Assembly: GCA_965222075.1 (NCBI GenBank)
Contig: OZ244937.1
Location: 1,536,001 to 1,600,000, forward strand
Direction of reading: 5' to 3'
DNA: 64,000 bases
From: Candidatus Latescibacterota bacterium
GTDB taxonomy: Bacteria; Latescibacterota; UBA2968; GCA-2709665
Under the pieces are notes generated by a model that made no database searches, was not told the DNA's origin, and saw nothing but the letters and a program-made list of their open reading frames with translations. Below are positions 3,884 to 64,000 of the stretch, one piece after another. The translations under genes and the position numbers were made by a program. How positions within the stretch are numbered: position 1 is the first letter of the stretch; every line of letters starts with the position of its first letter.

Positions 3884-6800
3884 CTACCGGTACAGTTCAA
3901 ACGTACCATCCTTCCGTCCCACGAGCAGCCCCCCTTCCGGCGACGCCCACGCCGCTGCGGTCGCTTCCGATGTCCCTGCGTCTGTCGTCTTGATCTTTCC
4001 CGAGCCGTCCAGACTGACGACCGTTCCACCTCGCAAAGCCACCAGACACCCTTGATGTACATCCGGGGCCAAGCCGACCACCGGCTCGGCCAGAAACCGG
4101 CGCCACAGTCGGTTGCCCCCTGTGCCAAAACACTGCACAAATCCGTTCGATGCACCGGCATACACCCGTCCCTCAAAGGCCTCAACCGCCAGCACCGCGC
4201 CTCCCAGGTCCGCATCCCAGATCACCCCGCCATCCCGCCGGTACAGGATCAACTGACGGTGGTTGGTATCCACTCCGCTGATCACCTCTTCCCGGCCGTC
4301 CCCGTCCACATCCGCTGCCCGCAGACATCTGGACCAGGAGGGAATGGACCAGCTCACGATATCCGGACGCGAAAGGGTCTGCACAAGCGTCCCGTCCCTC
4401 CCGTAAACCAGGGTGTGTGCGTGGATGGCGGGGTCTGCCAGCCCGGCGAGCGTCTGCTGCTCCGGTCCCTCCATCAACCGCGCCGTGACCAGACACACCG
4501 GCGGCCCCCATTGACAGGCCGACCGCCACAGCAGGTTGCCCCCATCGTCGAACGCATAAACGTGACGGTCTGCGCACCCCGCCAGAATCTCCTCCCGGCC
4601 ATCCCCGTTGATATCACCGGTCGCCAGGCTCAGAACCACGCAGTTCTTCTGCGTCCAGCTATCCCAGTTCATCCGCTGCCACTCAATCCGATAGGACCAG
4701 ACCGCGTCTCCGGAAGCATCCAGCCGGTACACGGTTTCCCGGTCACCTCCCACCGCCACGCCCCCATCTTCCAGGACCGCAAGCGCCCGGACGCCGCCTC
4801 CTACCTCTCGCTTCCAGAGCACATCACCTTCCGGACTGAACGACGTAACCCCGCCGCCAACATCGCCCGCAACCCCCCACTCCTCCCCGATGTCAAGCGC
4901 CGTCACATGTTCTGCACACGTCGCACGCCATACCGGCCTCGCTTCACCGCCCGCGATTCGGAAGGGCGCCGCATCGGACGCATCGGTGTTGCGGCCGGCG
5001 GCCTGTCTGCCTGCTTGCGCGCTGCGCGCAGGCAAGTGTGCGTGAGACAGCACGCACAGGCAGGTCGGCAGCGTCGCTCCGGCCGCCGTGACCTCCGGCG
5101 TCTCACCCCTCTCCGTGAATACAACCCTTACGGGTTCCCCTTCCCCTTCGATCCGAAAACCCGTATCCTCCTCAAGCAGACTGTAATCCCGGCCACCGTC
5201 AACCCGATCCGTCCAGAAGAGCGTCCCAAACCGGGTCCCCGTGCCAGGCTCAAGCTGCGCCACGGACCGCTGGACCCACCGCGAGTAGTCCTCCACACAC
5301 GCATCATCCGACGCAACCAGTTCATGCTGCCCACTCCCCACGTGCCGCATCCTCAACTGCGCCTCACCCTGAACCGAACACAACAGACCCTCGGCAAGCG
5401 TCACCTCCCCAAGCAGATGCCAGCGACACTCAACCAGAAACTCCCCTGTCACGTGTGGCCAGACCTCGTCGACGACCAGAAACCACCCTTCGCGGCTGTA
5501 CACGATATGCCGATACCAGTCCCCCTGCTCCGGATAGGTCATCGATGTCCCCGCTACGGACAGCGTCTCTCCTTCCTGAAGATACCGCAGGGCCGCATAC
5601 CTGGACTCGCAGCCCGGCCCGGAGCCGTCTACCGCAAGACTCACCCCCGTGTAACCCCGAACCGATGCGGGAGCGTTACCCCCGGAGCCTTTGAACCAGG
5701 ACGCTCCCCGGCTCGTGTATCGCACAATACAGTTGCCATCCTGATAGGAGTGCGAACCTCCCGAGATCCCGTCCAGCAGCAGATAATCGTCTTCTTCCGT
5801 CCATCCGGACCGGAAAAACACCTTGTCAAACGTCTGGTCGTAGGGCAAATTGCGCAAATACACGCCATTCTCGGGCGCAAACGTGGTATAGCTCTCAATC
5901 GAATCGTAAAACAATCGGGACAGGGGGGCCGCGCCCACCCGACCCAGCCTTTCCGGCACCACCGCCTGCCTTCCCGTCACCCACGTCCGCAGGGGCTCTT
6001 CAAACACCCTCACCGCCCGTTCTACCACCGCGTCCTCATCGGACGTTTCACACAGCTGCAGGTACTCATCGTTCCCCGTCACTGCTGCAGCCATCCGGCA
6101 ATACTGTTCCGGTGCGCCTTCCAGGCTGCTATGCGCAATAAGCGCCCGGTCCACACCCTCCAGGTAGGGCCGGCTTGAAAAGTAGCCCATCTTCCCCGAG
6201 GCCAGCGCATAGTCTGCCGTGTTGAAAAGCGAGGCGGCCCACTGATGCCCCCAGGAGTCGCACACGGGCTTGTTCGAAGCCATCTGGGGCGCAAAGAACA
6301 CCTCGGCCAACTTCATCCATGCCAGCCCCTCCGCAAGTCCGTGCACCTGGTGGAAATACCGTCCCCCGTAAAAGAGGTCCAGCGCGGATCGGGTCTGATG
6401 ATTCTGGCGAACCTGGTCAACACCCACCTGGGCCAGCAGTCCCCTGTTTCCCGCCCCCTCCGCGGATCTGAAGAGACCCAGCAACGCGTCCAGCGTCTCC
6501 TCCCGCTGTGCGTTTGGGAGACCGGGATGGTTTTCCAGAATCGAAAATGGCAGCAACAGAATCCGGATGAACCCGTGGATCAATGTCGGGTCCGTCAGCT
6601 CCCGCTCAAACCAGCGGGTGCGGGCAAAGTGACAGACCTGCTGGCAGAACATCCCCATCAACCCCTCCATCCCGGTCTGCACCGCCAGCATCCCGATATC
6701 GGCCACAACCATCATATAGGTCCAGTCTCCCGATCCCCCACCAATAGATTCTTGCTCCAGATCCCGATCTCTCCTGGCCAGCATCTCGCGCGCCGGCGTC

Positions 6801-7258
6801 AGATACAGATCCGACCATCTCCCCAGCTGCACCCGATACTGAAAGGGCAACACAGGCCCACTTGCCTCGATCACCCCCCCCAGCGCCTCCGCCGCCCCGG
6901 ACACATCCTCCGCCTGGCTCACACCCACCACAACCACGTGTCCCACGCCGTCTAAGGAATGAGGCGCCGTCCGGATCGCCCACCCTCCGGGACCCGGCCA
7001 CACCCGGTCGGCCAGATCGTAGGCCCGGAAATAGAGTGTCCGCAAAAACGCACTGTCCATCATATTCCCCAGCGCAATCACATGGCGTCCATCCGCGTCA
7101 AGCCTCTCGTCCGGCAGAACCTCTACACGCCCTGAGAGCGTATCCTCCAGAGCCGCCTTCAGGCGCCCGGCTGCTTCCTGATAAGGACCTGTCGCAGGTG
7201 CGGAAATACAGACCCCTTCCGCCAGATCCGTCTCGTGAACCGCAGGTGAAAACACCAT
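3884..7258 (-). CDS. Tandem paralog of 471-3761 (1124 aa) carrying a 63-bp in-frame palindromic insertion
   Basis: Colinear with the neighbouring protein over its full length; extra CLCVLSHAHLPARSAQAGRQA between LPT and AG. Confidence 0.8.
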   Translation of the reverse strand: MVFSPAVHETDLAEGVCISAPATGPYQEAAGRLKAALEDTLSGRVEVLPDERLDADGRHVIALGNMMDSAFLRTLYFRAYDLADRVWPGPGGWAIRTAPHSLDGVGHVVVVGVSQAEDVSGAAEALGGVIEASGPVLPFQYRVQLGRWSDLYLTPAREMLARRDRDLEQESIGGGSGDWTYMMVVADIGMLAVQTGMEGLMGMFCQQVCHFARTRWFERELTDPTLIHGFIRILLLPFSILENHPGLPNAQREETLDALLGLFRSAEGAGNRGLLAQVGVDQVRQNHQTRSALDLFYGGRYFHQVHGLAEGLAWMKLAEVFFAPQMASNKPVCDSWGHQWAASLFNTADYALASGKMGYFSSRPYLEGVDRALIAHSSLEGAPEQYCRMAAAVTGNDEYLQLCETSDEDAVVERAVRVFEEPLRTWVTGRQAVVPERLGRVGAAPLSRLFYDSIESYTTFAPENGVYLRNLPYDQTFDKVFFRSGWTEEDDYLLLDGISGGSHSYQDGNCIVRYTSRGASWFKGSGGNAPASVRGYTGVSLAVDGSGPGCESRYAALRYLQEGETLSVAGTSMTYPEQGDWYRHIVYSREGWFLVVDEVWPHVTGEFLVECRWHLLGEVTLAEGLLCSVQGEAQLRMRHVGSGQHELVASDDACVEDYSRWVQRSVAQLEPGTGTRFGTLFWTDRVDGGRDYSLLEEDTGFRIEGEGEPVRVVFTERGETPEVTAAGATLPTCLCVLSHAHLPARSAQAGRQAAGRNTDASDAAPFRIAGGEARPVWRATCAEHVTALDIGEEWGVAGDVGGGVTSFSPEGDVLWKREVGGGVRALAVLEDGGVAVGGDRETVYRLDASGDAVWSYRIEWQRMNWDSWTQKNCVVLSLATGDINGDGREEILAGCADRHVYAFDDGGNLLWRSACQWGPPVCLVTARLMEGPEQQTLAGLADPAIHAHTLVYGRDGTLVQTLSRPDIVSWSIPSWSRCLRAADVDGDGREEVISGVDTNHRQLILYRRDGGVIWDADLGGAVLAVEAFEGRVYAGASNGFVQCFGTGGNRLWRRFLAEPVVGLAPDVHQGCLVALRGGTVVSLDGSGKIKTTDAGTSEATAAAWASPEGGLLVGRKDGTFELYR
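5002..5064. repeat. Nested CCTG...CAGG palindromic element (36-bp outer + 27-bp unit A at 5010-5036), in frame
   Basis: cctgtctg[cctgcttgcgcgctgcgcgcaggcaag]tgtgcgtgagacagcacgcacaggcagg; absent from paralog 471-3761. Confidence 0.92.
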
Positions 7259-7378: not shown

Positions 7379-7839
7379 CATGATAAACCGGAGAGGAGAT
7401 GACCACTGTCGGTCGGCGTTTGATGCCCCTCACGCCAGGGGAGTCAAGCACCACCATGTCGCCCAGATTAAACAAGATTCTCCCCCTATGGGTAGAGTGC
7501 CGCCGCGTACTGTAAGGCGAGATCCTCGATCTCCTTTGTTGGTTGCAATTGCCTTTAGTCGCTTAGCCGCTCCGTTGGCTAAAGTCCAGTTGGAAGGAGC
7601 GCTCAAATTGGTCTTGACAATGGGGGCCACTTTAGCAAACATTGCTTTGGCAAAACCCCAATGCAGACCTTCCTCGACTCAAAGCACTTGAGTCAGGAGA
7701 AAATGTTGGATAACTTACAGCACAAACGTCAGCCCTTGGCTGCTGTCGGATAACTCGCCACTGTCAGATCAAGTTTTAGCGAGTACACTTCACAAAGAGC
7801 GCCGATAAATCTGACCGAATTGATGTCGAGAGAAGAAAT

Positions 7840-9672
7840 ATGTCCAGCCTCTGGAGATCCGTAAAGCAAGTCTTAGAGTATTATCCAAGATGTATAAAGC
7901 TGACTTGGCAGGCGAACCACCGTTATGCACTCTTAGCATTTATCTTTAGCATCTTCAGTTCTGTTGTACCAGCCGCTCAAGTGTGGATCTCCAAAATTGT
8001 CATTGATACGGTGGTTCAATTCCTTAGCAACACCACGGCAGATATCACAGTAGACTGGTTCAAGCTTCTGTCACCGATTGGAGGCGTCTTAGTCATCTGG
8101 ATGATCGGTGGTATCTGCCAATCTGTGTCAAACACTCTAAACGAACAAATCGGGTTCTACACACGAAATTACTCTCAATACCTGATTTTAAGCAAGGCTT
8201 CTCGATTGGATCTAGCCTTCTTCGAAACACCCAAGTTCTTCGATGAAATGGAAAAGGCCAGGAGTGAGGGATATCGGGCCAACAATCTTGCTGTTCTTTC
8301 CGTGAGAATCATTTCGTCAGCTGTTTCAGTGATATTAATGATTGTCCTTCTTCTCGAAGTTCATTGGGCAACAGCCATCATTCTTCTGGTCACTACCACG
8401 CCTCAAGTGATTGTTGGTGGTTATTACGCGGGAAAGCGTTTCGGTCTTGTAGGTGCTGTGACCAGAGAACGACGGGTGGCGGATTATTTGTCGAGGCTCC
8501 TGGGATCCCGAGATGCCGTAAAGGAAATCCGCCTTTTCGGCCTTCACAGTGAGTTCCTGAGGCGGTTCAATGACTATTGGAGAAAGTTCTCAAAACAGAC
8601 GATCCATCTTCGCTTCGCCCAAGAGCGATCAGCTTTCCTTTTCGGCCTTCTTTCAATGGTAGGTACAGCCTCGATCTGGGCATACGCTGTAATCCGAGCT
8701 GTAGGTGGACATATAACGGTTGGCGACGTTGCACTCGCCTTTCAGGCGGCGGAGCGTGGCAGGTCAGGACTCGATACCCTTTTCCGGAATCTGGGTCAAT
8801 TCTACGAACATACTATCTTTGCGGGGAATCTCTTGCGGTTCCTCGACCTTGACCCTCGTGCCATTCAAGGATCTCTCGCACCGCCACCCGAATCTCCCCG
8901 GCCAATGCCCAAGAAGCTTATCGAAGGAATAGAATTTCGAAATGTGTCATTCCGCTATCCACACTCCGAGCGTGTCGTGCTCAAGAACCTGTCTTTTACC
9001 ATCAGAGCTGGCGAGTCTGTAGCCATTGTTGGGGAAAACGGTGCAGGAAAGACAACGCTCGTAAAACTCCTGGCCCGTTTCTACGATCCTACAGAAGGAA
9101 CCATCTACCTGGATGGCTGTGATCTACGCGAGTATGACTCAGAAGAACTGCGGCGTCATATCGGTATCATCTTCCAGGATTTTGTCCACTACGACTTTTC
9201 TGTCCGTGAAAACATCGGCTTCGGCCAGGTAGAGTTCATCGAAGACCAGAAGCGGATCGCTCGTGCAGCCGACAAGGGAGGTGCAGCCGAACTCGTGCAT
9301 TCTCTTCCTAACGGTTTTGATACCATACTTGGCAGGACATTCGACAAAGGAGTCGACCTTTCGGGCGGAGAGTGGCAAAAGATAGCGCTTAGCAGGGCCT
9401 TTATGCGAGAAGCACAGATATTGATTCTAGATGAACCAACTGCTGCTTTAGATGCGTTAGCTGAATATGAGATTTATGAACGTTTTGCAGATCTGACTGC
9501 CGGTAAGACGACAATATTTATCTCACACAGATTCTCAACAGTTAAAGTAGCCCATCATATTTTGGTTTTACAGGAGGGACGGTTAATCGAAAAAGGTACT
9601 CATGATGAATTAATGCTTTTCGATGGACAATATAAAAAAATGTTCAACGCTCAAGCTGAAAGATATAAGTGA
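7840..9672 (+). CDS. ABC exporter, fused permease/ATPase (610 aa), low GC
   Basis: N-terminal TM helices, GENGAGKT, LSGGEWQK, LILDEPTAALD, ISHR motifs. Confidence 0.92.
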   Translation: MSSLWRSVKQVLEYYPRCIKLTWQANHRYALLAFIFSIFSSVVPAAQVWISKIVIDTVVQFLSNTTADITVDWFKLLSPIGGVLVIWMIGGICQSVSNTLNEQIGFYTRNYSQYLILSKASRLDLAFFETPKFFDEMEKARSEGYRANNLAVLSVRIISSAVSVILMIVLLLEVHWATAIILLVTTTPQVIVGGYYAGKRFGLVGAVTRERRVADYLSRLLGSRDAVKEIRLFGLHSEFLRRFNDYWRKFSKQTIHLRFAQERSAFLFGLLSMVGTASIWAYAVIRAVGGHITVGDVALAFQAAERGRSGLDTLFRNLGQFYEHTIFAGNLLRFLDLDPRAIQGSLAPPPESPRPMPKKLIEGIEFRNVSFRYPHSERVVLKNLSFTIRAGESVAIVGENGAGKTTLVKLLARFYDPTEGTIYLDGCDLREYDSEELRRHIGIIFQDFVHYDFSVRENIGFGQVEFIEDQKRIARAADKGGAAELVHSLPNGFDTILGRTFDKGVDLSGGEWQKIALSRAFMREAQILILDEPTAALDALAEYEIYERFADLTAGKTTIFISHRFSTVKVAHHILVLQEGRLIEKGTHDELMLFDGQYKKMFNAQAERYK

Positions 9673-9804
9673 GGTTAGACCTCAATGGTTAAAGAAATCT
9701 ACAGTTCAGTTAATCATCCCTTTGTAGAACGACTAAAGTTTGGACAGGAATCGGCCTATCCAGCCGCGTGCCGCCGCACAACACGTTGTAAGCAATGTTA
9801 AGCA

Positions 9805-9858
9805 CCTGTCTGCCTGCTTGCGCGCTGCGCGCAGGCAAGCGTGCAACGCACAGGCAGG
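9805..9858. repeat. Nested palindromic element (27-bp unit B containing 27-bp unit A), in frame in the transposase remnant
   Basis: cctgtctg[A]cgtgcaacgcacaggcagg = 54 bp, adding ACLCVARLPARSAQAGRQ. Confidence 0.92.
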
Positions 9859-9982
9859 CGTGATCCGACTCATGATAGGACAGATGCACCTTCAACAAGG
9901 ATACCAACGCGTCGATGGTCTTGGCCGGACCCAACTTGGTGACCAGTCGATGCTCCGCCCCCATGCCTCCATAGCTCATCGT

Positions 9983-10027
9983 GCCTGCCGGCAAGGCAGG
10001 GGCAGGACGCAGGCAGGCGCAGGCAGG
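9983..10027. repeat. Degenerate cluster of the same CCTG/CAGG element family
   Basis: cctgccggcaaggcagg ggcaggacgcaggcagg cgcaggcagg: stacked CAGGCAGG ends. Confidence 0.6.
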
Positions 10028-10397
10028 TTGGAGTAGCGAATTCCGTCAGAATCCTGCTATCTCCAACAACGGTAAGCCTTTCCGGTCTTTTAGAACAGAG
10101 AAATCTCATCAATCACGCTTGTTTATGGGCTAGTGCAACTCGGCGAAAATAAACTACCAGTTTGGCCGCAAGTCATTCACCCGGAATTAAGCGATTTCGG
10201 TTCCGGATAACTGATGGGAAACTTCCGCCGAGCACCACTAGTTGATGTCTCCAGCGTTGGTGTGCCGGGTACACCCTCCGCTCCAATCTGATAAAAGGCT
10301 CCTTTATCCGCTTCCTCTTCGGTAGGCCGTTCCCAATAGCCGGCTTGAGATCCGGATAACTGATGGGTTTAAGCATCACATGATGTCAAGCGCTATC

Positions 10398-10413
10398 CCA
10401 ACACGTACAGCTC
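10398..10413 (+). repeat. 16-bp direct repeat, left boundary of the PHP-ATPase islet
   Basis: ccaacacgtacagctc, identical at 13778-13793. Confidence 0.8.
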
Positions 10414-10555
10414 ATACGCGCCCAGCGTGCTGGCCGAAATGGGCCTGTGGAGTTTCGGCCTGCCCTTTGCCGCGGCCCTGCCCGACGGCGACGCTCGAGC
10501 TCCAAGGTCGTTTCCTCACCGAGCCGGATGCGCCGTGCCAACTCATCGTACTCCA

Positions 10556-13282
10556 TCATGGTTCCGATCTCTGCGGGGGCATAATCCGCTGGTAGCGACT
10601 CTCGAATGCCTCACGGCCGCCCTCCATCACGCGACAGATTTCTTCTCGAACCTTCTGTTCCTGAAGGCTGCCCTGACAGGCGATGCGACTTTGGCCCCCG
10701 GCCGACTCAAGCGAGAACACGAGTTCGGCGTCGCCGTGGACGACGATATTGGGATTGTGGGTGACGACGATCACCTGGCGATTGAGCTTCGTTTCCCGCA
10801 GCCGGTGGACCAACAGTTGGTAGATGAGGGTATTGTCCAGATCGTCTTCGGGCTGGTCCAGGATGATCGGCTCGGAACCATAACCCAGAACGAAGGCCAG
10901 GAGCGCGGCGGTTTGCTGCCCCGGCGATCCCTGGGTGAGAGGCCTCCAGTCACTGGCTGAACGCTCTTTGAAACTCACTTCAACATCGTCTTCCGGGAGG
11001 TACAGAGCGAGACGATCGATCCTCTCTGGCGGGACTTTTTTCAGGGCTGTCTCGAAGCGTTGGTCTTTCGTCGGCCAGGAATCCAGCTCTTCCGAAAGAA
11101 GCTGGCGCATCTCTGCAACCACACCATCAAGCTCCTCCCAGCTCCATGACCGATCCTGTTTGGGCTGAATCCTCCGGGCGAGCGCCTGACGGTCGCCTTC
11201 AAAGCGCTCGATGCCGAGAATCCCGATCAAGTCTTTCGCGAGATTCTTGCAGTTCGCGTATTCATCTATTTCAACGCGGATGCTCTCGCCCGATGTCCCC
11301 TTCGAGAAGCTTTTGCGCCTGTCGCTCAGCTCACGGCGTCGCTTGCGGTATTCGGCAAGAATCGCGACGGCCTTGTCCTCCAGTTTCTCCGCTCGCTCTC
11401 TTTCTTTCTCCAGGGCCTCAATTTCTTGCCCGAGCGTGTCCGCCTGTTCCAGCAGATCGCCGTACTCGTTTGGATCGGAAATGCCTTCTTCGGCGAGTTG
11501 GGCGGATGCTTCTTCAAATTCGCGCTTGCTGGCGTCCACTACTGCATGCCATTGGTCGGCATCCGCGCTCGCCTCTATTCCTCCGATATCTCGCCGCGCT
11601 CGCTCGACACTCTCGCGCACGCCTTGCTCAAGGTGTTCCACAGTCAGCCTCAGTGCTTTGTGCGCACGCCTGAGACTCGCCTGGGCCGGATCGTCCTCGA
11701 CCTCAGCCCCGAGGTCGAGATCGGCGACCGAAAGCTTTTCCGCGCTGCGTCCCACCGACTCCACCGCTTGCGACGCCGCCTTTAGAATCGCTCGCCAGGT
11801 ATCGTCCTGCTGACGCCGCTTCCGGTACTTGTTCAGCACCTGCGCTTGTCCGCCTCCTTCGAGAACCTCCAGCTTGCGTCGAACGTCCGCGAGCAACGCT
11901 TTGCGGGCCGGCAACTCGCTTGCCTGAGTAGACGCCGCACGAGACTGGGCGCGCAAAGACAGGTAGCGGTCCCCCATTTGCTCGATAACGCGATTTTGCT
12001 CCGTACCGCGGACAGTTTGGCTATCGTCGATGACGGTGAGCAGAGCGTTCGGATCCTGGGCGAGCGCAAAGAGCTGTTTCTGGCTGTAGATGCGCACCGG
12101 GAAACGCTCGCGGATATTGCCCTCCTGGAGAATCCGTTGCTCTCCATCCAGGCGAGCGATCGGGAGCGCCTCTCCGTCCTGACTCCAGGAGAGAACGAAG
12201 CGCTCGCCGTCCTTGCGGTACACCACTTCGATGCACGTCTCATTCGTCAGCAGTCCTTCCTCCTGGGGCGATGTGGGAACACGCATGCGGCGGTCGAACA
12301 AACTTCGCAACGAGCCTTCTTCGCTGCGGTCGCTGCCGTCGAGTTCCGCTTCCCGGCGGAGCGTCTTACGGCAGAAGTCAATGAGCGTGGATTTGCCGGT
12401 GCCGCGTCCGCCGATGATCGCATTCAGCCACGGGTTGAACGAAACCGTGGTTGGCGACGGCCGACCGATGAATTTGCCCTTGTGAACGGTAATGCTCTCA
12501 ATAGCCAGGGCGGCGTGGGCATTCGGATTGCCTGGCTCTTCCCGGGCAGCCGGCTTGAGGGAAGCCGCGCCATCCAGCAGCGCCAGGCGCAGACCCTCCA
12601 GGTTCGGGCGCGTCATCTTCACCCAGGTGAAGCGCCGGCCCAACTCGTCGGAGTTGTGACCGTCGGAGGCGTGCACCTGCGAGATTCTACGCCTGATCTC
12701 GCCCTTGCTTCCATCAAGCCAGCTTTCGTCGATGCTCCTGTCCGGATCAACCTCGACCGCGGCCAGGTTCCGGTGTCGCAGCACTGCAAGCCGCTGTTGG
12801 CCGCCGTACTGGAGCAGTCCATCGGGTGCGTTGACGTGGGCACCAACGATCAGGGCATTGTCCTCGCACGCGTCTAGAATCTGCTCGATGCCTAACGGGG
12901 AACGAGCAGTCTCGCCACCCCGTTTATCTACGGGAATCTCCACGCTGGAGAGAAGATCGTCGATGTGTTGCTGCGTGCAATCCGGGTCCATCAGCAAGAG
13001 CAGGTGGATGCCGTCACTGGCGGTGATCTCTACCCCGGGGAAGAGACCCGGGGCGTCCTCCACGCCTTTGGCGGCCCGCTGCAGCTCGGAGATGCCCGCG
13101 GCCGTGTTGTGATCGGTGACCGCAGCGGCATTGAGGCCCGCCGTGCGAACCGTCCTCACCCATTGGGTCCAATCGGGGTTCGCCCGATCGTCCTCGGTCC
13201 CAAAATCATGCGACGCCGGGGAATGCGTATGAAGATCAACGCGCCACCAGCGCGCGCCGGGCCAATTCCACGATATGCTCAT
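10556..13282 (-). CDS. PHP phosphoesterase + SMC/ABC-type ATPase fusion (Ppl/TrlF-like), candidate anti-phage protein, about 908 aa
   Basis: DLHTHS, TDHN, GVEI and SDGH PHP motifs; GGRGTGKS Walker A; coiled coil; SPGQ, ILDQPEDDLD, VTHN. ATG at 13282 follows an AGGAGGT RBS. Confidence 0.85.
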   Translation of the reverse strand: MSISWNWPGARWWRVDLHTHSPASHDFGTEDDRANPDWTQWVRTVRTAGLNAAAVTDHNTAAGISELQRAAKGVEDAPGLFPGVEITASDGIHLLLLMDPDCTQQHIDDLLSSVEIPVDKRGGETARSPLGIEQILDACEDNALIVGAHVNAPDGLLQYGGQQRLAVLRHRNLAAVEVDPDRSIDESWLDGSKGEIRRRISQVHASDGHNSDELGRRFTWVKMTRPNLEGLRLALLDGAASLKPAAREEPGNPNAHAALAIESITVHKGKFIGRPSPTTVSFNPWLNAIIGGRGTGKSTLIDFCRKTLRREAELDGSDRSEEGSLRSLFDRRMRVPTSPQEEGLLTNETCIEVVYRKDGERFVLSWSQDGEALPIARLDGEQRILQEGNIRERFPVRIYSQKQLFALAQDPNALLTVIDDSQTVRGTEQNRVIEQMGDRYLSLRAQSRAASTQASELPARKALLADVRRKLEVLEGGGQAQVLNKYRKRRQQDDTWRAILKAASQAVESVGRSAEKLSVADLDLGAEVEDDPAQASLRRAHKALRLTVEHLEQGVRESVERARRDIGGIEASADADQWHAVVDASKREFEEASAQLAEEGISDPNEYGDLLEQADTLGQEIEALEKERERAEKLEDKAVAILAEYRKRRRELSDRRKSFSKGTSGESIRVEIDEYANCKNLAKDLIGILGIERFEGDRQALARRIQPKQDRSWSWEELDGVVAEMRQLLSEELDSWPTKDQRFETALKKVPPERIDRLALYLPEDDVEVSFKERSASDWRPLTQGSPGQQTAALLAFVLGYGSEPIILDQPEDDLDNTLIYQLLVHRLRETKLNRQVIVVTHNPNIVVHGDAELVFSLESAGGQSRIACQGSLQEQKVREEICRVMEGGREAFESRYQRIMPPQRSEP

Positions 13283-13531
13283 GTTGTACCTCCTATATCT
13301 CCATCGCCGAACAGCCCACCATTCGTCAGCCACCCGGGCAAGAATCACCCCCAAGGGTGCATCCAGGTGGACAGCGCTTGCCTCAATCCTGTTGTGTCGC
13401 TCGCGTCCAACAAACTTATACAGCGTTTGTACGCCGCTCAAACTCGGCCGCTACCGAGTTGTAAACCCCTCGTGCCTGCGACACCGCCCGTTCGGCGTCG
13501 GCCGCTGTGGAACCACATTGGCAATCTTGGG

Positions 13532-13760
13532 CTAACTACCAAACAGTTTTTGACGAACTTCATCTTGAGGCAGTCCAAAATGTTCAGCGACATCGGACAC
13601 TATCGAACTTAGTGTGCCTACATTTACTTGACGATGACACGGGATAGTCACGTTATGCTTCGTCCCTTGAATGGCGGTGGTTAGCGTCATGGTGACTGCC
13701 ACGCTGCCGAATGAGCTGGTTCCGGGACAGTCTCATACCGCGATCACCTCATCCTTTTCG
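13532..13760 (-). pseudogene. Decayed HicA-like toxin with the last codons of its upstream antitoxin
   Basis: MRLSRNQLIRQRGSH/(frameshift)MTLTTAIQGTKHNVTIPCHRQVNVGTLSSIVSDVAEHFGLPQDEVRQKLFGS*; preceded by KDEVIAV* with an ATGA overlap. Confidence 0.7.
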
Positions 13761-14657: not shown

Positions 14658-14733
14658 CCTGCCTGTGCCGCTTGCCTGCGCGCAGCGCGCAAGCAGGCAG
14701 ACAGGCAAGCAGGTGCCCGTCACGGCAGACAGG
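14658..14733. repeat. Intergenic, multiply nested palindromic element (76 bp, not a multiple of 3)
   Basis: cctgcctgtgccg[unit A rc, 14671-14697]cagacaggcaagcagg tgcccgtcacggcagacagg. Confidence 0.88.
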
Positions 14734-14736
14734 CCT

Positions 14737-14781
14737 CCCCCGCCTTCGGGGCGGGGCGGGCGAGACGCCCGCGCTCCCAGG
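14737..14781. repeat. GC-rich hairpins, REP-like
   Basis: ccccgcc-ttcgg-ggcgggg and gcgggcg-aga-cgcccgc-gctcccagg. Confidence 0.5.
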
Positions 14782-27991: not shown

Positions 27992-28132
27992 GCGATACCC
28001 CCTTGAACAATGCCCCCGCGTATCTTATCTCGTCCTATCTCGGAATACCCACATAAGCCCCGGCAAACCCCAGGCCCCCCAGCAGTGCCAGATTCCAGAA
28101 AAGTGCACCCTTTGACTACGGTGAGATTTTGT

Positions 28133-50786: not shown

Positions 50787-50810
50787 ATTTCCTCCTGCCG
50801 AATGTCATGT

Positions 50811-53800
50811 TCACCAGCGGTCCCCCACCCTCCATCCCTTGACCTCCCCCTCATCCGTCGCCAGCACCACATCCCCATCCACACGAACAATACAGGTCGG
50901 CCTTCCCGCAATCCTGCCCGACCGGACCACCTCTCCACCGCCATCCAGAACAACCAGCGTACCGTCTTCGCAGCCTGCCACAACCCGGCAGGCGCCCGCC
51001 GCCTCAACCCATGCCATAACCGCCGGCGGACTCGGCAGCCGTCTCGCCCAGACCTTCTCACACCGGTGATTGAGCGCAAGTACCAGCCCACCCGAAATCG
51101 CCACGAGCAGCTCTTTCTTGCCGTCACCATCCAGGTCGGCGATATCGAAATCCCGCACGTTATCTGCCGGAATGCGCTGCCCCGGGCCCAGGTGAACATT
51201 GTACAGCGCCGTTCCATCGTCCGCCCACACCGTCACCCGGTTCCAGGTTCCGTTGATCTCGCTGACCACTTCCATCTTGCCGTCCCCGTCCAGGTCCTCG
51301 TAAAAAATGTGCTTCCGGCTCATGCACGCCCACCCCCCGATATTCGTGTGGCCGGCAGGCACATCCCGGAAGCTGCGCTGCTTCGGGTCCATCTCCCGGT
51401 TGTTCACCACGGCCATCGCGTGCGAGTCCGTAGGCTGGCGTGCAATCAGAAGATTGACACTCCCCCCGGGTCCGTCGATCAGGGCAAACCGCGAACCCGG
51501 CCCCCAGAACACCGGCAGCCGCTTCACGAGTTCCCCGTTTTCGTCCAGCATCTCCAGCGTGCAGGCGCTGCCCACGAAAGCCTGGCTCTTCCCATCCAGA
51601 AAAACGCCGGAATGGAGCCCATGAATGCCCGCGTGTCCCGGAGCCGACTTGAACCAGTAAGGTTTTGCAGCCCGGAACACCGCAGGGTCTTCCTCGGACA
51701 CGAACACCCATTTGCGGTCCCCGGTATCCACATCGAACGCGATCACCTTCTCGTCCACGCACCCCGCCAGAAGCAAACCGTGCTCCTCCCACCAGTGAAG
51801 CACGCGAACAGGACCATCCGTCTGAAGCGTCCGGAGCTCCTCCCCCTCCTGTGTCAACACGTGTACCGTCTGTGCTTCAGCCGCACAGATCCGCGTGCCC
51901 TCGCCCGAAGAAACGGTGATGAGGTTCACCACCTCACCCCCCACGTTCGACGCAAAAACCGACGTCAGAGACGGCACATCCGGCAGAACCGGTGAACCTG
52001 CGGCGGCAAGCTGCCGTCTTGCTTCCCGGCCCTGGTTCAGAAGGCCCTCAAGCCGCGCCGTCACCTTTTCAAGCGTGCCCGCATCCGGCACAACGCCGGA
52101 CACCCTATGCCGCCCGGCGGCGACCTGAAGTACCGAAAGACCGTCCGCAACCCCCAGACGAATCTCCGTCTCCCCGCCGGCAACCACCTCCAGAACACCG
52201 CTGTGAAAGTCCCAGTCAACCTGCACGGGCGCACTTGCGGAGAGGAGCGAAGCGCCAAGCGCAACCTCTGTCGCGTTCACCCCGTGCAGGTGGTCCCGCG
52301 CCAGCACCACCAGCTCAGCTTGAAGCCCCTCATACGCGCCCACAGCAGCTACGGCCGGCTCCGGCAGCGCCAGGACCGCTGCATTCTCCGCCAGCCGCGC
52401 ACACACCGTCCCCTCTGCTGCAATCAACGAGAAAAATCGTCTCTCGCTCCCCTGCTGCACGGTTCCGCGCCAGGCCATACGCGCCTGGCCATCTCCAACA
52501 GCGGTCTCGACCGGGTCGCACAGGCGGATCTCCCCGGCGCCCGCAACGCGAACCGCGCCCCCGTCCGGCAACGCCTCCCACGCGCCCTTCCCCTGCCACA
52601 GCACCCCAACCTCCATGTCCTCGCTGTCCGCACGAAACGCCAGATCGTCCACAGCCAGGACGTACCGGCCCACGCGCTGAACAAGCGTCCGCCGCCAGGT
52701 GCAAAACGCGGCCCCGGGCACCTCGCCCACGACCACGGCGCTCCCTCCCACCACATCCCGATACCGGAGGGCCGCATCCATCGCCACCTCCGGCTCCACC
52801 ATTCCATCCGCTCTGATCAGCACCTGGTTCAGATAGCCCTCGAGTACTGTCTGGCCATCCAGCCGCAATTCCAGAATGACAAAAGTATGGTAAGGATTGC
52901 GCGAGGCCCCGTTCATTCCTTTAATCAGGATAAAATCACCCGACGCATCGGGCGCACTTCGAAAGCTGCCGAACAGAAACGAGCCTTCCAGTGGCAATCC
53001 GCCGGAGCGACCTCGCCACATCGGCTCGGGAATGGGATGGATGCTCCACGTATCCACCAGATCCGTGGGCAGTTCCGGCTTGAGATCGTCTTCGGGCCAG
53101 AACGACTGCCCAAGCCGGAAGATGTCCAGGTCGATCCCGGTACGGCGCAGGTATTCGCGGTAGCGCCCGTCCTTCATCAGATAGGCGGCCTTGTTCAGAA
53201 ATCCGATCGACGCCGAATTCAGCGCCCAGTCCGGCTCGCGTCCCGAAGCCAGAATCTCCTGCCCGCGAAGCAGCGTGGCCAGCACCCCGTTTTCGATCAG
53301 CTTCCGATCACCCGTAAGCAGCATATAGCTCAAAACAGGGGCCATGCCGGTATTGTACCAGAAAAGATTGTCGTGCTCCCCGTCTACCCAGGCGTGGTGA
53401 TGCAGCGGGGCAAAATGCCATTTGGCCGCTTCCATCGACTGTTCCCAGAGCGGATGGGGATAGCCCTTCTGAAAATAGCGGCCCAAACAATAAAGCGAAA
53501 TCGCCGACCACTGTCCATGCCGGGACCCTATGCTGAGCGGCGGGTCTCCAAATCCCCGCCTTCCCATGCGCACATTCTCCACAACCTGCCGCCGCGCGCC
53601 CTGGTCCTGCGCGTGCGCGAACTGCCCGGCAAAAGCATTCGTCACGCGCAGCCGCTCTTCGTCCGTAAACACCGGGCTTTCTTCAATCAGATCCCAGTAC
53701 AGAATCATCATATGCGCGTTGTAGTGGTAGGGCCCACTCAGCGGCTCGTCCTTGTTCTCGATCTGCTCCCCGTCGATCTCGGTAATCTCCGCCATCGCGC

Positions 53801-54488
53801 GGTCATCCGGAAAAGCCAGGCGCAGGGCCTCCCGCGCATGAAACGGATCTCCGGTCATATAGTACATCGCCATCCGTTTGCTGATACTGTTCCACCCGAA
53901 ATACCCCACCGACCCGTATCCCGCAGAGGCCTCCCATGTCTCAAATTCCCGGATATCCTCCGGAACCTGAACGCCCTTGCCCAGCTGGATCTCCATCAGC
54001 CGACCCACGCAGAGCGTCCCATCGCCGCCCTCTGCCTCCCACACCTCCTCCACGAACACCCCGGCCGCCGAGGCCACGCCCGCCGCGTCGCTGCCCCCCA
54101 CGAAAATCACATTATGCCCGTCCCCGAAAGGCGTGTGCAAAGACCGCACCACAGACCCCCCCGCGCCGGGGTAGCGCAAATCCAGCAGCGTATAGTACCG
54201 GTTGTAAAGCGCCCCGATCGTCCGGTTGGTCGACCGGTTGCCCGGCAGGATCAGATTTCCTCCTATCGGCACCGAGCCTTCTGGAGCATCGTCCGTCGCA
54301 ATCGGCACCCGAACGCCCGAACGCGCTTCAATCGCCACCTGGATCCGGGAAGCCACTGCATCGTAGATGCCGCTGCCAGGGACGATAATCGTGGCATTCG
54401 GCTTCCCCTCTCTCACCAGCTCCGTGTTCAGATGCAGATCCTTGAGTTCCGTGTAGACCGGTAGGATCTGATCTTCATCTGCCGCCAT
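50811..54488 (-). CDS. Divergent paralog of the same lyase-like/propeller family (1225 aa)
   Basis: Shared N-terminal LKDLHL.T.LV..G, YPG.GG, GDGHNVI..GGSD, WDLIEESPVF; C-terminal DLDGDG repeats. Confidence 0.72.
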   Translation of the reverse strand: MAADEDQILPVYTELKDLHLNTELVREGKPNATIIVPGSGIYDAVASRIQVAIEARSGVRVPIATDDAPEGSVPIGGNLILPGNRSTNRTIGALYNRYYTLLDLRYPGAGGSVVRSLHTPFGDGHNVIFVGGSDAAGVASAAGVFVEEVWEAEGGDGTLCVGRLMEIQLGKGVQVPEDIREFETWEASAGYGSVGYFGWNSISKRMAMYYMTGDPFHAREALRLAFPDDRAMAEITEIDGEQIENKDEPLSGPYHYNAHMMILYWDLIEESPVFTDEERLRVTNAFAGQFAHAQDQGARRQVVENVRMGRRGFGDPPLSIGSRHGQWSAISLYCLGRYFQKGYPHPLWEQSMEAAKWHFAPLHHHAWVDGEHDNLFWYNTGMAPVLSYMLLTGDRKLIENGVLATLLRGQEILASGREPDWALNSASIGFLNKAAYLMKDGRYREYLRRTGIDLDIFRLGQSFWPEDDLKPELPTDLVDTWSIHPIPEPMWRGRSGGLPLEGSFLFGSFRSAPDASGDFILIKGMNGASRNPYHTFVILELRLDGQTVLEGYLNQVLIRADGMVEPEVAMDAALRYRDVVGGSAVVVGEVPGAAFCTWRRTLVQRVGRYVLAVDDLAFRADSEDMEVGVLWQGKGAWEALPDGGAVRVAGAGEIRLCDPVETAVGDGQARMAWRGTVQQGSERRFFSLIAAEGTVCARLAENAAVLALPEPAVAAVGAYEGLQAELVVLARDHLHGVNATEVALGASLLSASAPVQVDWDFHSGVLEVVAGGETEIRLGVADGLSVLQVAAGRHRVSGVVPDAGTLEKVTARLEGLLNQGREARRQLAAAGSPVLPDVPSLTSVFASNVGGEVVNLITVSSGEGTRICAAEAQTVHVLTQEGEELRTLQTDGPVRVLHWWEEHGLLLAGCVDEKVIAFDVDTGDRKWVFVSEEDPAVFRAAKPYWFKSAPGHAGIHGLHSGVFLDGKSQAFVGSACTLEMLDENGELVKRLPVFWGPGSRFALIDGPGGSVNLLIARQPTDSHAMAVVNNREMDPKQRSFRDVPAGHTNIGGWACMSRKHIFYEDLDGDGKMEVVSEINGTWNRVTVWADDGTALYNVHLGPGQRIPADNVRDFDIADLDGDGKKELLVAISGGLVLALNHRCEKVWARRLPSPPAVMAWVEAAGACRVVAGCEDGTLVVLDGGGEVVRSGRIAGRPTCIVRVDGDVVLATDEGEVKGWRVGDRW

Positions 54489-61903: not shown

Positions 61904-64000
61904 TCACAGCTTCAACGCTTTGGTTTCGCTTCCGGAGTTGGGAATCGAAATCCGGTCGCCCGGTTTGAAATCCAGAATCTCGAACCGCCTGCCTGCCTGC
62001 TTGCGCCTGTCTGCGTGCGACGCACAGGCAGGCGCTGCGCGCAGGCAAGCCTGCAGCCCCTCCACCGATTCCAGCCGGATCTTCTTAAACGCCAGCAAAT
62101 CGACGATGCGGGACTGAAACGACCCGTCCTCCGTGCGCAGCACCTTCCCCTGGTATTCGCCCTTGTCTCCGCTGTTGTTGAAGCCCCATGCAAACGCAAG
62201 CGGCACGTCGCAGACCAGGACATCCGGGGCCTCAACCGCTTTGACCGTCCCCCTCACCAGCCGGGGATCGCCGTGCTGCAGGACGAGCCGGGCGTTCTGC
62301 CCACCCACGGCGGAGACAACCCGGTAGCCCGAACCGTGAGAATAGGGCGCGTCCGCTTCGGCCGCGTCCACCCGGCACAGCCGCCCGTCCAGGCGCATCC
62401 CGTCGGGCAGATCCCGGTCAATCGCCACGGATTCCGCATCGGCATCCACACCCGCGATCCGGGCCTCAAAACGCGCCTCCGGGAGCGTCGTTTCCGCATC
62501 GCCAAACCGCAAGCGCGTCCCTTCTACCAGGCACAGCTCCACCCGGCCGTTCGCCTCCCGAACGACCCCGAACCGCCCCTCAAGCGCAATCGGAACGCCC
62601 GCTTCGTCCCGGACCTGGACCGATCCGTCACGCGAGAAAAGGACCGTATCGCGTCGGCCGTCGGCCAGGTGTACCCGCACGGCCACGCTCCCGCTGTCCA
62701 CGTCGCGCGCAAGCACGCTTGCCCCCACCACGTTGCGCGCGCCGGAAAACGCCTCCAGCACGCTAACGAACAGGCTCTTCAGATCCTCCCCCTCCCGGCG
62801 GAGTATCACGCGATGAATCTGCTGCGCGCCTCTCAGGTCGGGTCCTTTTGCCGCGATCAGGGTCGCCGCCGGGTCGGCCGGAAACCACACGCCGAAACGG
62901 GTATCCCGCGCATCCCCAAACGTCCAGAGCGCGTATGCGTCCCGATCCAGGCAGGCGGTTTTCACATCGTGGATAAACGCGTACCCGTTCCCGGGCGGTG
63001 AGAGCCATCCGTAGGGCAGCGGACTTCCATCCGGCGCGGCCACGCCCTGGATGCGATCGTTCGGACCGATCCGTTCCCCCCAACTCTTCCCGGGCGCATT
63101 CGCCTCTTCCGAGCCGTCCACCGTCCCCAGCGCAGCCAGCGTCCACACCCCGGGACGGGCGGCAGGAGACACGCCCTCCAGGGAAAACGCCCCCGAATCC
63201 CCCTCCACGAATTTGGGTCCGTTCATCGCATAGTCGTGCATACGCCCGCCGGCCACCGGGAAAATATCCACCGTATAGGACGTCTCCTCGTCCACATCGC
63301 AAAAAATCAGCGCCCGGCGGTACTCGGTCGCCCCCTGGTGGCTCCTGGACAGCGGCGCGGAATACTCCGCGATCTTCACACCCCCCAGATCCTCGAAAGC
63401 AACCAGGTTCGCGCTGGGCACGAACTCGTAGCCCTGAGACGTCGGGATATCCTCGTTTACCGTCACCATCGCGTGGGAGATCGCCCGCATGCCCCACCCC
63501 CGATGCACGTGCGAACCGGCCAGCGCGTAGCCCACGTCTTCGATCACGGTCCGGCCCTTATCGTAGAGAAACAGCGCCAGCTGATCGTCCTGTGCCAGCA
63601 GGTTCGCGCCCCCCCGCACAATCAACGCCCGCGCCCGGTCTCCCGTCCCGCTTCGTAGCACCACCACCCCCTTGTGCCCGGCGAACGAAGAAGTGGATGG
63701 AAACCCGCCTGCCTGCGCAGCGTACTGCGCTGCAGGCAGGCCCCCGGCTTCCCCGGTCGGCCCCGGAACGGTATTGAACAGCGCCCAGGTGCCACGCCGG
63801 ACGTTCTCCGCCTTGCCATCCGACAGATCCAGCATCAGCTGCTCCGCCCGCTGCCGGGTCTTTGCGTCCCCACTTCGGAAATAGAGCCGTTCCAACAGAG
63901 ACCAGTGGCTGGACATCACCTCCCGTTCGGACGGCGGCCAGTAGCCCGGCCGCGCGTTCGTATTTCCGTAAGACGGAATGCGCCCGCACGCCCGGATCAA
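61904..64000 (-). CDS. Heparinase II/III family protein (5' end outside the window) with two in-frame palindromic insertions
   Basis: GVVVLRSG, DQLALFLY, DVGY, SHAMVTVN, YRRAL, HDY motifs. Confidence 0.75.
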   Translation of the reverse strand: MIRACGRIPSYGNTNARPGYWPPSEREVMSSHWSLLERLYFRSGDAKTRQRAEQLMLDLSDGKAENVRRGTWALFNTVPGPTGEAGGLPAAQYAAQAGGFPSTSSFAGHKGVVVLRSGTGDRARALIVRGGANLLAQDDQLALFLYDKGRTVIEDVGYALAGSHVHRGWGMRAISHAMVTVNEDIPTSQGYEFVPSANLVAFEDLGGVKIAEYSAPLSRSHQGATEYRRALIFCDVDEETSYTVDIFPVAGGRMHDYAMNGPKFVEGDSGAFSLEGVSPAARPGVWTLAALGTVDGSEEANAPGKSWGERIGPNDRIQGVAAPDGSPLPYGWLSPPGNGYAFIHDVKTACLDRDAYALWTFGDARDTRFGVWFPADPAATLIAAKGPDLRGAQQIHRVILRREGEDLKSLFVSVLEAFSGARNVVGASVLARDVDSGSVAVRVHLADGRRDTVLFSRDGSVQVRDEAGVPIALEGRFGVVREANGRVELCLVEGTRLRFGDAETTLPEARFEARIAGVDADAESVAIDRDLPDGMRLDGRLCRVDAAEADAPYSHGSGYRVVSAVGGQNARLVLQHGDPRLVRGTVKAVEAPDVLVCDVPLAFAWGFNNSGDKGEYQGKVLRTEDGSFQSRIVDLLAFKKIRLESVEGLQACLRAAPACASHADRRKQAGRRFEILDFKPGDRISIPNSGSETKALKL
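61996..62049. repeat. Reverse-nested element: unit B (62006-62032) inside unit A, 54 bp, in frame
   Basis: cctgcttgcg[cctgtctgcgtgcgacgcacaggcagg]cgctgcgcgcaggcaag; removal leaves EGLQAGRRFEILD. Confidence 0.92.
63708..63740. repeat. Solo 33-bp palindromic element, in frame
   Basis: cctgcctgcgcagcgtactgcgctgcaggcagg encodes LPAAQYAAQAG. Confidence 0.85.

Follow-up and report, generated by a model that had tools for sequence, protein, structure and literature searches.

Palindromic elements of Rickettsia (RPEs), reportedly described by Ogata in 2000, lie in frame in genes that remain functional, and those of the RPE-1 type measure about 100–150 bp. Small dispersed repeats of about 21–27 nt in Nostoc and Anabaena are said, in work by Elhai and co-workers from 2008, to be mobile. 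IS200/IS605 elements and their miniature derivatives (PATEs) carry two different subterminal hairpins and use a fixed target of 4–5 nt, and Y1 enzymes such as that of IS608 leave no target duplication and use a target motif on one side. REPIN/RAYT systems were reportedly treated by Nunvar in 2010. REPINs are inverted REP doublets that are extragenic, flank their RAYT, and are thought to be moved in trans by this single-copy Y1 transposase (Bertels and Rainey, 2011; PMC3116915). The closest described systems are the GTAG- and CGTC-tagged REP superfamilies found in ORFs (Di Nocera, De Gregorio, and Rocco, 2013; PMC3733652); the available text presents them as dispersed, imperfect palindromes of 20–40 nt, with several subfamilies per genome, that occur as single or grouped units in known genes, where they encode approximately 10–30 amino acids. 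The CGTC-REPs are characterized there by a CGTC tag, an 8–9 bp stem starting with A/T pairs, and a CCA tail, and RPE-4 and RPE-6 belong to this type (PMC3733652).

The window examined here, a 64,000-nucleotide stretch of a sponge-type Latescibacterota genome, contains a CCTG(C/T)CTG...CAGG family that an earlier note, made from the sequence alone, had placed at eight loci. These CCTG units are probably DNA hairpins that are mobile but non-autonomous and that form a REP-like family. They conform to the generic definition of a REP (imperfect palindromes of 20–40 nt in many dispersed copies) and, like RPEs, are palindromic repeats lying in frame in genes that remain functional, although they differ from RPE-1 in phylum, sequence, and size (units of 27–36 nt, composites of 54–63 nt). 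The Nostoc and Anabaena repeats are likewise reported to enter other repeats, and sometimes genes, and to have no known enzyme, but they belong to a different phylum and have a different sequence. Like IS200/IS605 elements and PATEs, they have hairpin ends and a short one-sided target motif and show no target duplication at the sites compared, but the entire element here consists of one hairpin, the target is loose, and the ends do not match the resident IS200 tnpA element. RAYT-like genes are present in CCTG-rich genomes, as in REPIN/RAYT systems; unlike REPINs, the CCTG units occur singly or nested, frequently lie in genes, and bracket none of the RAYT-like loci examined. They lack the unpaired GTAG (GYAG/GTRG) tag of GTAG-REPs, both feet being conserved instead, and differ from CGTC-REPs in having the feet CCTGYCTG and CAGRCAGG with neither a CGTC tag nor a CCA tail; they also nest inside each other, whereas the REPs of both superfamilies form spaced dimers in the available text (PMC3733652), and a further difference is that a quarter or more of the CCTG contexts are in ORFs. 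The novelty implied by the earlier note was overstated, since short REPs in ORFs, including two uvrA inserts that parallel two in a UvrA-like gene here, appear in the same source, as do the short, REP-like RPE-4 and RPE-6, against the note's view of RPEs as much longer. Going by that part of the literature, the kind of element is known (intragenic REPs), and this family is new and unusually suited to coding DNA.

The genome-wide pattern search that the note had proposed returned 215 matches in this genome, against 0 for the reversed pattern in each of 41 genomes, which excludes chance. The census comprises 272 minimal units at 257 loci dispersed over the whole chromosome, which collapse by shared flanks into 219 independent flank contexts. 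Unit lengths range from 19 to 55 nt and are mostly 27–36 nt, with peaks at 33 (93 units), 27 (50), 30 (19), 25 (17), and 36 nt (13). The units fold as bulged hairpins in which the conserved CCTGYCTG foot pairs with CAGRCAGG and the top is variable, and nesting is frequent: a unit often lands within another copy of the family or in the loop of a different palindrome.

In the window, the sequence agreed with the earlier description at all eight coordinates, and its analysis returned the claimed unit sizes of 27, 27, 33, and 36 nt and left seven of the eight loci as true members. The 27-nt unit A, given as identical in five copies, is intact in four (at 5010 and 9813 and, in reverse complement, at 14671 and 33035), while the fifth, at 61996–62049, is split by a nested unit B. 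The 63-bp composite at 5002–5064 is a 36-nt T-type unit interrupted after 8 nt by a nested unit A (−22.8 kcal/mol; z −2.8 versus shuffles), and its host is P0001 (3884–7258, minus strand, 1124 aa), which belongs to the heparinase-like/FG-GAP beta-propeller paralogue cluster of the window and itself matched propeller domains only; the insert lies at residues 732–753, just ahead of the propeller. A 54-bp composite at 9805–9858, in which unit A is nested in the 27-nt unit B after CCTGTCTG, is carried by ORF 9710–9994 (minus strand). This ORF is a truncated, N-terminal remnant of an IS-type transposase and no working gene. Partial, degenerate right feet (GCAGGCAGGCGCAGGCAGG) at 9983–10027 were rejected as a unit (z −0.85; 45 of 200 shuffles fold equally well) and represent an incomplete remnant. 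The intergenic copy at 14658–14733 has the 76-bp sequence described earlier, and proves to be a composite of three units, including a reversed unit A, in the divergent promoter region between a PhyH gene and the gene at 14885. Close to it, at 14756–14780 on the plus strand, is another kind of REP (GCGGGCGAGACGCCCGCGCTCCCAG), namely that flanking type-1 RAYT genes in relatives; its loop is a repeated target of CCTG units elsewhere in the genome. P0002 (31410–35375, minus strand, 1321 aa) has a C-terminal FG-GAP/PQQ beta-propeller and, N-terminal to it, two 60-bp composites: a 33-nt unit with a 27-nt unit A variant nested after its first 8 nt (32479–32538) and a 33-nt unit with unit A nested (33010–33069). 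The heparinase II/III-like P0003 (61904–64000, minus strand) runs past the window and has 1082 aa in the genome; it holds the 54-bp unit A at 61996–62049, with the 27-nt unit B at 62006–62032 inside it, and a single 33-nt unit at 63708–63740 that is read as 11 aa (−14.4 kcal/mol; z −3.2 and −3.8 on its two strands). Units A and B are free of stops in every frame, as had been stated, and the same applies to five of the eight loci, with one stop each in 5002–5064, 14658–14733, and 33010–33069.

All six coding insertions described earlier as in frame (63, 54, 60, 60, 54, and 33 bp) are real. The 63 bp at 5002–5064 correspond to 21 aa and to a gap of exactly 21 aa in all four orthologues of the 3884–7258 gene; the 20 + 20 aa of 32479–32538 and 33010–33069 are missing in nine of nine orthologues of 31410–35375; the 33 and 54 bp of 63708–63740 and 61996–62049 (11 + 18 aa) are missing in four of four orthologues of the 61904–64000 gene; and exactly the 18 aa of 9805–9858 are missing in the sole genome paralogue (3456963–3457130). 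Exact empty sites were found in orthologues or a paralogue at all eight insertion sites tested, bearing out the proposal of mobile, non-autonomous, peptide-adding elements whose insertions are lineage-specific. They show small hairpins lengthening large enzymes, regulators, and a UvrA-like repair protein by segments of 9–21 residues. The description as recent also held: a same-genus genome with 95% DNA identity lacks both inserts in the UvrA-like gene, placing peptide gain by hairpins within one genus-level time span. In a run from another host (X10), one contig spanning 33006–34600 has 27 letters fewer, a hint of a 27-nt presence/absence difference.

Insertion is precise, with no target duplication and no target bases lost. 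In DNA-level comparisons (slash, insertion point), ACCGA/TACACA gains exactly the 36-nt unit and GAGGGA/CGCC gains 60 nt made up of a 27-mer with a 33-mer nested in it; neither these two sites nor the 32479 site, read from window DNA, showed a target-site duplication. Of 236 flanks, 214 have R at position −1 and 203 have Y at position +1, with G at +4 in 82 of 106 oriented T-type units and C at −4 in 48 of 82 oriented C-type units, giving the oriented consensus C-N-S-R/unit/Y, a loose 4-nt motif on one side only. We propose that insertion, usually at an R/Y step beside this one-sided C-N-S-R motif, strikes genes and spacers alike and that selection then purges disruptive copies; in ORFs, only multiple-of-3, stop-free inserts persist. 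Surviving genic inserts add 9–21 residues rich in A, R, Q, G, L, P, and C, and usually sit in linkers or at protein ends.

That the peptides are ancestral and were lost in relatives, or that the hairpins are assembly or adapter artefacts, has practically no probability, found no support, and is refuted by the empty sites and independent assemblies: more than 200 unrelated places share this DNA, which lies on either strand and is read in three frames; the inserts, whose conservation in orthologues the earlier note had raised as a possibility, are missing from every orthologue tested, in several clades; short-read contigs from other hosts run into units at the same places; and MAGs from other groups carry the family. 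Ordinary MITEs of a DDE transposon, with the middle deleted, would account for the inverted termini in a genome with several IS families, but this origin is highly improbable and was discarded given the precise insertion without duplication, the absence from this genome of any long or full-length element with CCTG termini, and unit lengths of 19–36 nt, which are under MITE size. Single-strand "peel and paste", as carried out by Y1/HUH enzymes, is in keeping with the one-sided polarity, the missing duplication, and the hairpin nature of the substrate, and we tentatively infer, at well short of even probability, that an enzyme of the IS200/IS605–RAYT kind moves the units in trans. The enzyme is not encoded in the window, as had been supposed: a Pfam scan of 14 window proteins gave no match to a transposase family, and whole-genome Y1_Tnp and RAYT searches gave no match inside it. 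Movement by some other route, such as an uncharacterized nuclease or recombinase, a phage-borne enzyme, or host replication and repair copying hairpins into single-stranded gaps, is less likely than not, although several observations favour it or count against the Y1 reading. No cognate enzyme was found, and none of 15 RAYT-like loci examined has CCTG units on both gene sides, with a single unit beside each of L031 and L035. Each RAYT type has a cognate REP other than the CCTG units: in relatives, the type-1 RAYT, whose slot is empty in this genome, is flanked by its own REP (CGAGGGCAGGATGCCCTCG..TCCCAG), and the sole RAYT-like gene here, a type-2 gene of 255 aa with HUH (NHVHIV) and YxxxNP motifs that scores 55.6 bits against a cut-off of 80 bits, has a low-copy GTAG-type REP of its own on its flanks; thus, mobilization in trans by a Y1/HUH enzyme can only be deduced. 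In addition, the hairpins of the one intact IS200 tnpA (CCCCTTCC and CCCCGCCC) are unrelated to CCTG units, genome G024 has 79 matches yet a RAYT match of only 30.8 bits and a broken IS200, G004, G005, and G007 have good RAYTs but 0–2 units, and exact units (identical 27- and 33-mers), which also occur in other genera and another family, are found on 6 viral contigs of IMG/VR. In the available text the CGTC-type REPs likewise lack a dedicated transposase, so that the CCTG orphans share with them the question of a cognate enzyme (PMC3733652). The non-Y1 route is opposed by the absent duplication and one-sided motif, which are Y1 outcomes, and by the other candidates: IS110-type transposases do not track the family (at E ≤ 1e-8, none in this genome, G002, G018, G020, or G024, and 56 in G034, which has 0 units), and ISLre2 and DUF772 transposase genes, rejected as sources, are themselves insertion victims. 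Within the family-level group, a RAYT-like gene, counted as such if it exceeded the NCBIfam cut-off or was a full-length orthologue of type 2, is present in 9 of 9 genomes with at least 50 matches versus 4 of 13 others, an association that the test overstates because related genomes are not independent.

The idea that units are codon-sized stands as a strong tendency (158 of 219 contexts are multiples of 3) and fails as a rule, since there are also units of 25, 19, and 31 nt, found almost exclusively outside ORFs. With contexts counted as ORF-spanned when, once the unit is excised, the frame is open for at least 100 codons on each side, the genic enrichment foreseen earlier is present genome-wide, as a frame filter: 45 of 158 multiple-of-3 contexts are ORF-spanned versus 5 of 61 others (p 0.001). 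In total, 50 of 219 contexts (about a quarter) are ORF-spanned versus 1120 of 2000 random genome positions (56%), so that units are depleted from genes yet far from excluded, and unlike generic REPs they are not predominantly extragenic; of the 257 loci, 102 fall within called genes, including 64 within high-confidence ones. The bias in length, which is not reported for REPs in the available part of PMC3733652, and the lack of stops could reflect a few founder subfamilies (27 and 33 nt) plus survivorship in genes, without adaptation, a reading with a little less than an even chance. It gains from the 143 of 272 units that are 27 or 33 nt long, from the single 33-mer that dominates G003, from the existence of 25-, 19-, 28-, and 31-nt units, and from shuffles in which G+C-rich palindromic make-up already yields 83.5 of 111 stop-free units. 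It fits less well with 80 of 111 distinct simple units being multiples of 3 (binomial p 1e-16), as are 30 of the 54 seen only outside genes (p 0.0008) and 113 of 169 contexts outside open frames, or with 99 of 111 units being stop-free in all six frames versus a maximum of 92 in 300 palindrome-preserving shuffles; the 28-mer expansion in G009 is only apparent, since 20 of 20 sampled copies share one flank context and are passengers in one larger repeat. The length and stop biases outside genes suggest that the element lineage is under selection for compatibility with coding DNA, a testable idea on the co-existence of selfish DNA and proteins. More doubtful is the full reading of a lineage adapted to life in coding sequence through steps-of-3 lengths and six-frame stop avoidance, with genes (86% of the genome) as its habitat, acting as an in-frame peptide-insertion mutagen and moved by a non-cognate of the described REPs; such units may survive preferentially in a cysteine-free reading phase, and the orphan family possibly uses a new hairpin-integration route.

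The family is patchy, being abundant in 12 of 22 family-level relatives and in one genome of a sister family. Pattern matches, which in relatives are due in part to passengers carried within larger repeats, number 61–193 in eight other same-family genomes, 14–79 in five further genomes, and ≤6 in the rest. Being patchy over about 170 genomes of a single phylum, the distribution offers a comparative handle for finding the enzyme. In practical terms, short-read assemblies break at these units, and MAG annotation can mistake them for protein repeats. A weak, lagging-strand-type orientation bias was also observed (67 of 112; p 0.047).

The CCTG family consists of REP-like hairpin units with CCTG(C/T)CTG as their left end and CAG(G/A)CAGG as their right end. 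The sequence was re-read at all coordinates of the eight window loci described in the earlier note and agrees with that description. The units resolved in the window are two of 27 nt, namely unit A (with feet CCTGCTTG/CAGGCAAG) and unit B, along with 33-nt units and one 36-nt unit, and the longer loci are nested composites of CCTG units: unit B with unit A inserted after CCTGTCTG (9805–9858), unit A with unit B inserted inside it (61996–62049), a 36-mer carrying unit A (5002–5064), and two 33-mers, each with an A-type unit inside (32479–32538 and 33010–33069). One proposed member, 9983–10027, drops out of the family, being a mere run of partial right feet that folds no better than shuffles. 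Folded as single-stranded DNA, a unit forms a foot of 7–9 bp and, beyond a 2-nt bulge, a short upper stem with a loop of 3–5 nt; the 33-mer reaches −14.4 kcal/mol (z −3.2 on one strand and −3.8 on the other). An Rfam scan of the whole window matched no family.

The source of the window is a single 5.36-Mb contig (59.3% G+C), in which the window occupies bases 1,536,001–1,600,000 and lies about 160–220 kb from the terminus as defined by skew; the closest public relatives are MAGs labelled Candidatus Latescibacterota, with a few labelled Gemmatimonadota. A genome-wide search for CCTGYCTG...CAGRCAGG, the check that had been proposed, returned 272 minimal units with length peaks at 33 nt (93), 27 nt (50), 30 nt (19), 25 nt (17), 36 nt (13) and 19 nt (8), and the reversed pattern gave 0 matches in each of 41 genomes. 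These units merge into 257 loci and then into 219 independent flank contexts, the remaining 38 loci being passengers within larger repeats. The genome also holds a CRISPR-like repeat of about 37 nt (about 90 copies) and, distinct from it, a repeat family of about 50 copies (with GGCCTCATTGAAGC, GCGATCTAATGACCGCGGAAA and CGCCCTTCTTTTTCGGCC) in which a 33-nt CCTG unit often occupies one constant position.

That the units are insertions is borne out at every testable site, each of which has an exact empty counterpart in orthologues or a paralogue. The inserted residues are absent from 4/4 orthologues of the 3884–7258 protein (21 aa), 9/9 of the 31410–35375 protein (20 aa + 20 aa), 4/4 of the 61904–64000 protein (11 aa + 18 aa) and the one paralogue of the transposase remnant at 9710–9994 (18 aa). 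Outside the window, a 1922-aa UvrA-like protein carries 12 aa and 20 aa that are absent in 5/5 orthologues, among them that of a same-genus genome with 95% DNA identity. There, ACCGA is joined directly to TACACA where the genome under study (G000) has a 36-nt unit, and GAGGGA to CGCC where it has a 27-mer with a nested 33-mer, so that at the DNA level zero bases were duplicated and zero lost at both sites. Because 251 kb of orthologous loci from relatives, unit-rich ones included, contained no unit, the G000 insertions are lineage-specific. The same-genus orthologue of the UvrA-like gene (L068, G001:C206) has one in-frame TGA, and several paralogues in relatives have single stops too.

The target is only loosely specified. 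Across 236 distinct loci, the flanking base is a purine at −1 in 214 and a pyrimidine at +1 in 203, the two being complementary in 133, and when asymmetry is used to orient the units, just one side shows a loose 4-nt motif (G at +4 in 82/106 T-type units; C at −4 in 48/82 C-type units, for which the orientation convention is opposite). A repeated landing site is the 3-nt loop of another REP (GAGGGCR-AGA-YGCCCTC..TCCCAG): 10 of 20 pattern matches hold a CCTG-type insert, which overlaps reduce to about 7 distinct loci on our reading of the list. This loop REP (GMGGGCR-loop-YGCCCKC..TCCCAG) occurs at window 14756–14780 and about 15 other genome loci, with a CCTG unit in the loop of about half of the G000 copies; REPs of its type flank the type-1 RAYT gene in relatives, and it persists in G000 without that RAYT.

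The description of the units as codon-sized holds as a strong tendency to multiples of 3 but not as a mechanical rule, since units of 25, 19, 28 and 31 nt occur. Multiples of 3 make up 80/111 distinct simple units (p 1e-16), 30/54 distinct units found solely outside genes (p 0.0008) and 113/169 contexts outside open frames. The units are also short of stop codons: 99/111 are stop-free in all six frames, against 83.5 ± 3.8 (maximum 92 in 300) for shuffles with feet and palindrome preserved. In the relative G009, a 28–29-nt class accounts for 35/190 matches, which might be taken as a counter-example; however, 20/20 sampled 28-mers share one flank context, and we conclude that a larger repeat spread them as its passengers. 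All 20 (L195–L214) lie in one larger palindromic repeat of the form ..AAGGGCCGGACG[unit]CAGCCCGGATGG.., a second-order mobile element that carries a CCTG unit. So few of the sampled G009 units are spanned by ORFs (2/20 28-mers, 1/20 33-mers) that this genome provides no second test of a frame filter.

By our own crude gene finder, which called 86% of the genome coding and missed atypical genes, the 257 loci divide into 102 within genes and 147 between them, plus 8 at gene edges. High-confidence genes hold 64 loci, 17 of them in the first decile of the protein and 12 in the last, and 57/64 are multiples of 3 by pattern bounds; we read the other seven as artefacts of where the boundaries of nested or partial units were drawn, the 60-bp insert of the UvrA-like gene being the one case checked at the DNA level. 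A measure free of the gene finder asks whether, after excision of the unit, the frame stays open for at least 100 codons in each direction; 45/158 multiple-of-3 contexts pass it, against 5/61 others (Fisher p 0.001). Since 1120/2000 random genome positions pass the same measure, units are depleted about two-fold from coding DNA, and frame-shifting units far more so.

Among the hosts are the window's heparinase-like/FG-GAP paralogues, a protein kinase, the UvrA-like protein, IS transposases and two NtrC-type activators, whose inserts lie between the AAA lid and the HTH domain. By domain coordinates six inserts fall in linkers. In high-confidence genes the x-LPA...QAG-x phase is used 31 times, whereas the two phases with cysteine are used 14 and 12 times (chi-square p 0.003), a preference that could reflect either selection on the peptide or an R|Y target at codon positions 2|3. 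The window clusters at least 7 large paralogues (471–7258, 31410–37888, 47091–54488 and 61904–64000) built of heparinase-like and FG-GAP/PQQ propeller parts, and genomes of the family have as many as about 25 matches each. An ISLre2/UPF0236-type transposase gene is present in two copies, at genome 2831408–2832925 (L073) and 3463714–3465240 (L074), which bear 2 and 4 hairpin units, respectively; at least the L074 copy is probably dead, because a frame-breaking 25-mer lies inside it.

Among 168 genomes of the phylum, 13 have at least 14 matches, 12 of them among the 22 genomes of the G000 family and one (79 matches) in a sister family. Counts in the family are 215 (G000), 193, 190, 133, 113, 90, 81, 61, 21, 19, 18 and 14, raw counts in relatives exceeding independent events, as the G009 passengers illustrate. 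All other genomes have 0–6 matches (0 and 1 in complete sister-genus genomes); a distant family member, G047, has 6, three of which are 27-mers identical to those of G000, and identical 27- and 33-mers are common to several genera. IMG/VR yielded 7 exact units among 132 pattern matches, most of the other matches being unrelated palindromes; the six viral-labelled contigs with G000-identical units (L112, L121, L126, L134, L135 and L162) might be phage or prophage sequences from related hosts, and a route of spread. Twelve sequencing runs (four coded host organisms, four studies) contained half or more of the words sampled from window 28000–36000. The Logan contigs of these runs break at units (one, for example, extends from 32509, within a unit, to 33035, where unit A begins or ends), and the inserts in host genes lie outside the coverage of the RNA contigs. 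One contig of run X10 spans 33006–34600 with 27 letters fewer, the length of unit A, which hints at a presence/absence difference.

The kind of element is already known, as intragenic REPs are described in the available part of a survey by Di Nocera et al. (2013; PMC3733652). That part presents REPs of 20–40 nt in two superfamilies tagged GTAG or CGTC, the CGTC type without a dedicated transposase, and places REPs wholly inside ORFs in several species, chiefly Opitutus terrae and Rickettsia conorii; the inserts encode 20–30 aa, and uvrA genes are hit twice. Compared with the REPs set out there, the CCTG family lacks the tag, has two conserved feet, nests unit within unit and has a larger share in ORFs; its multiple-of-3 and stop-free biases were not found reported in that portion. 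The reading of the earlier note, mobile frame-preserving hairpins, is supported overall but overstated their novelty. The available text of a study of sponge Latescibacterota (PMC12993501) mentions palindromic repeats for CRISPR only, and no description of the CCTG family was found in a search of the main texts of openly accessible papers. A plausible and testable case can be made that the family is adapted to coding sequence.

Precise, duplication-free, one-sided insertion of hairpins is the behaviour of Y1/HUH enzymes, as known from work on IS608 (cited in PMC3116915). Because the CCTG insertions are of this type, we take a Y1 enzyme that acts in trans to be the likeliest mover, albeit tentatively, with a mover of another kind close behind; no cognate enzyme was found. 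The orientation bias between replichores has the expected sense and is too weak to use (67/112; p 0.047). IS200-type Y1 transposases were rejected: their counts do not track the units, and the one intact tnpA of G000 (a further copy is broken) has hairpins unrelated to CCTG units. A RAYT-like element of G001 and G003, with CCTGTCTG/CAGACAGG in its end hairpins, is absent from G000 and has the motif in the stem-loop, not the foot. As for movers of another kind, IS110/DEDD transposases are lacking in G000 at E<=1e-8 and numerous in unit-free genomes, and IS110-type enzymes do not track the unit family. Where units cluster, the transposase genes of ISLre2 (UPF0236) and DUF772 type are insertion targets rather than sources, and among 5 candidate pairs for a long autonomous element with CCTG termini in G000 none has complementary ends.

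A good RAYT of either type is present in 9/9 family genomes with at least 50 matches vs 4/13 others, an association among relatives that are not independent and to which the sister-family genome G024 is an exception. None of the RAYT loci examined has CCTG units on both sides. G000 has one divergent RAYT-like gene (type 2; 255 aa, HUH and Tyr motifs, 55.6 bits vs a cut-off of 80) in a cassette bounded by 100-bp direct repeats with their own GTAG-tagged REP, and its only orthologues are in G009, G012, G019 and, with a stop codon, G017. The other type (98–105 bits) adjoins a PhyH gene in G002, G009, G018, G020 and G021 and is flanked by yet another REP; its slot is empty in G000.

The G000 cassette (G000:C1:3241540–3243000; L037 1100–2400) also holds two small toxin-antitoxin-like ORFs between the repeats, each repeat of about 100 bp carrying the GTAG-tagged REP CACAAACTGACAGTTTGTG+CTAC, and a similar REP-like stretch lies in frame within the RAYT gene, between the HUH and Tyr motifs. 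At the place of the relatives' RAYT gene, G000 has window 7800–13700, which has no G020 counterpart and is mostly uncalled by a codon model trained on G000 genes; it contains an ABC transporter-like gene (by motifs), an IS-type transposase remnant and a 961-aa AAA_21/SMC-like ATPase. In G020 (L036, G020:C1:1911000–1915000), and also in G002, G021 and G003, a complete RAYT-like domain, HUH and Tyr motifs included, forms an in-frame fusion within an open frame of about 1200–1440 aa, whose N-terminus in G020 presumably resembles a DUF1156-type DNA methylase.
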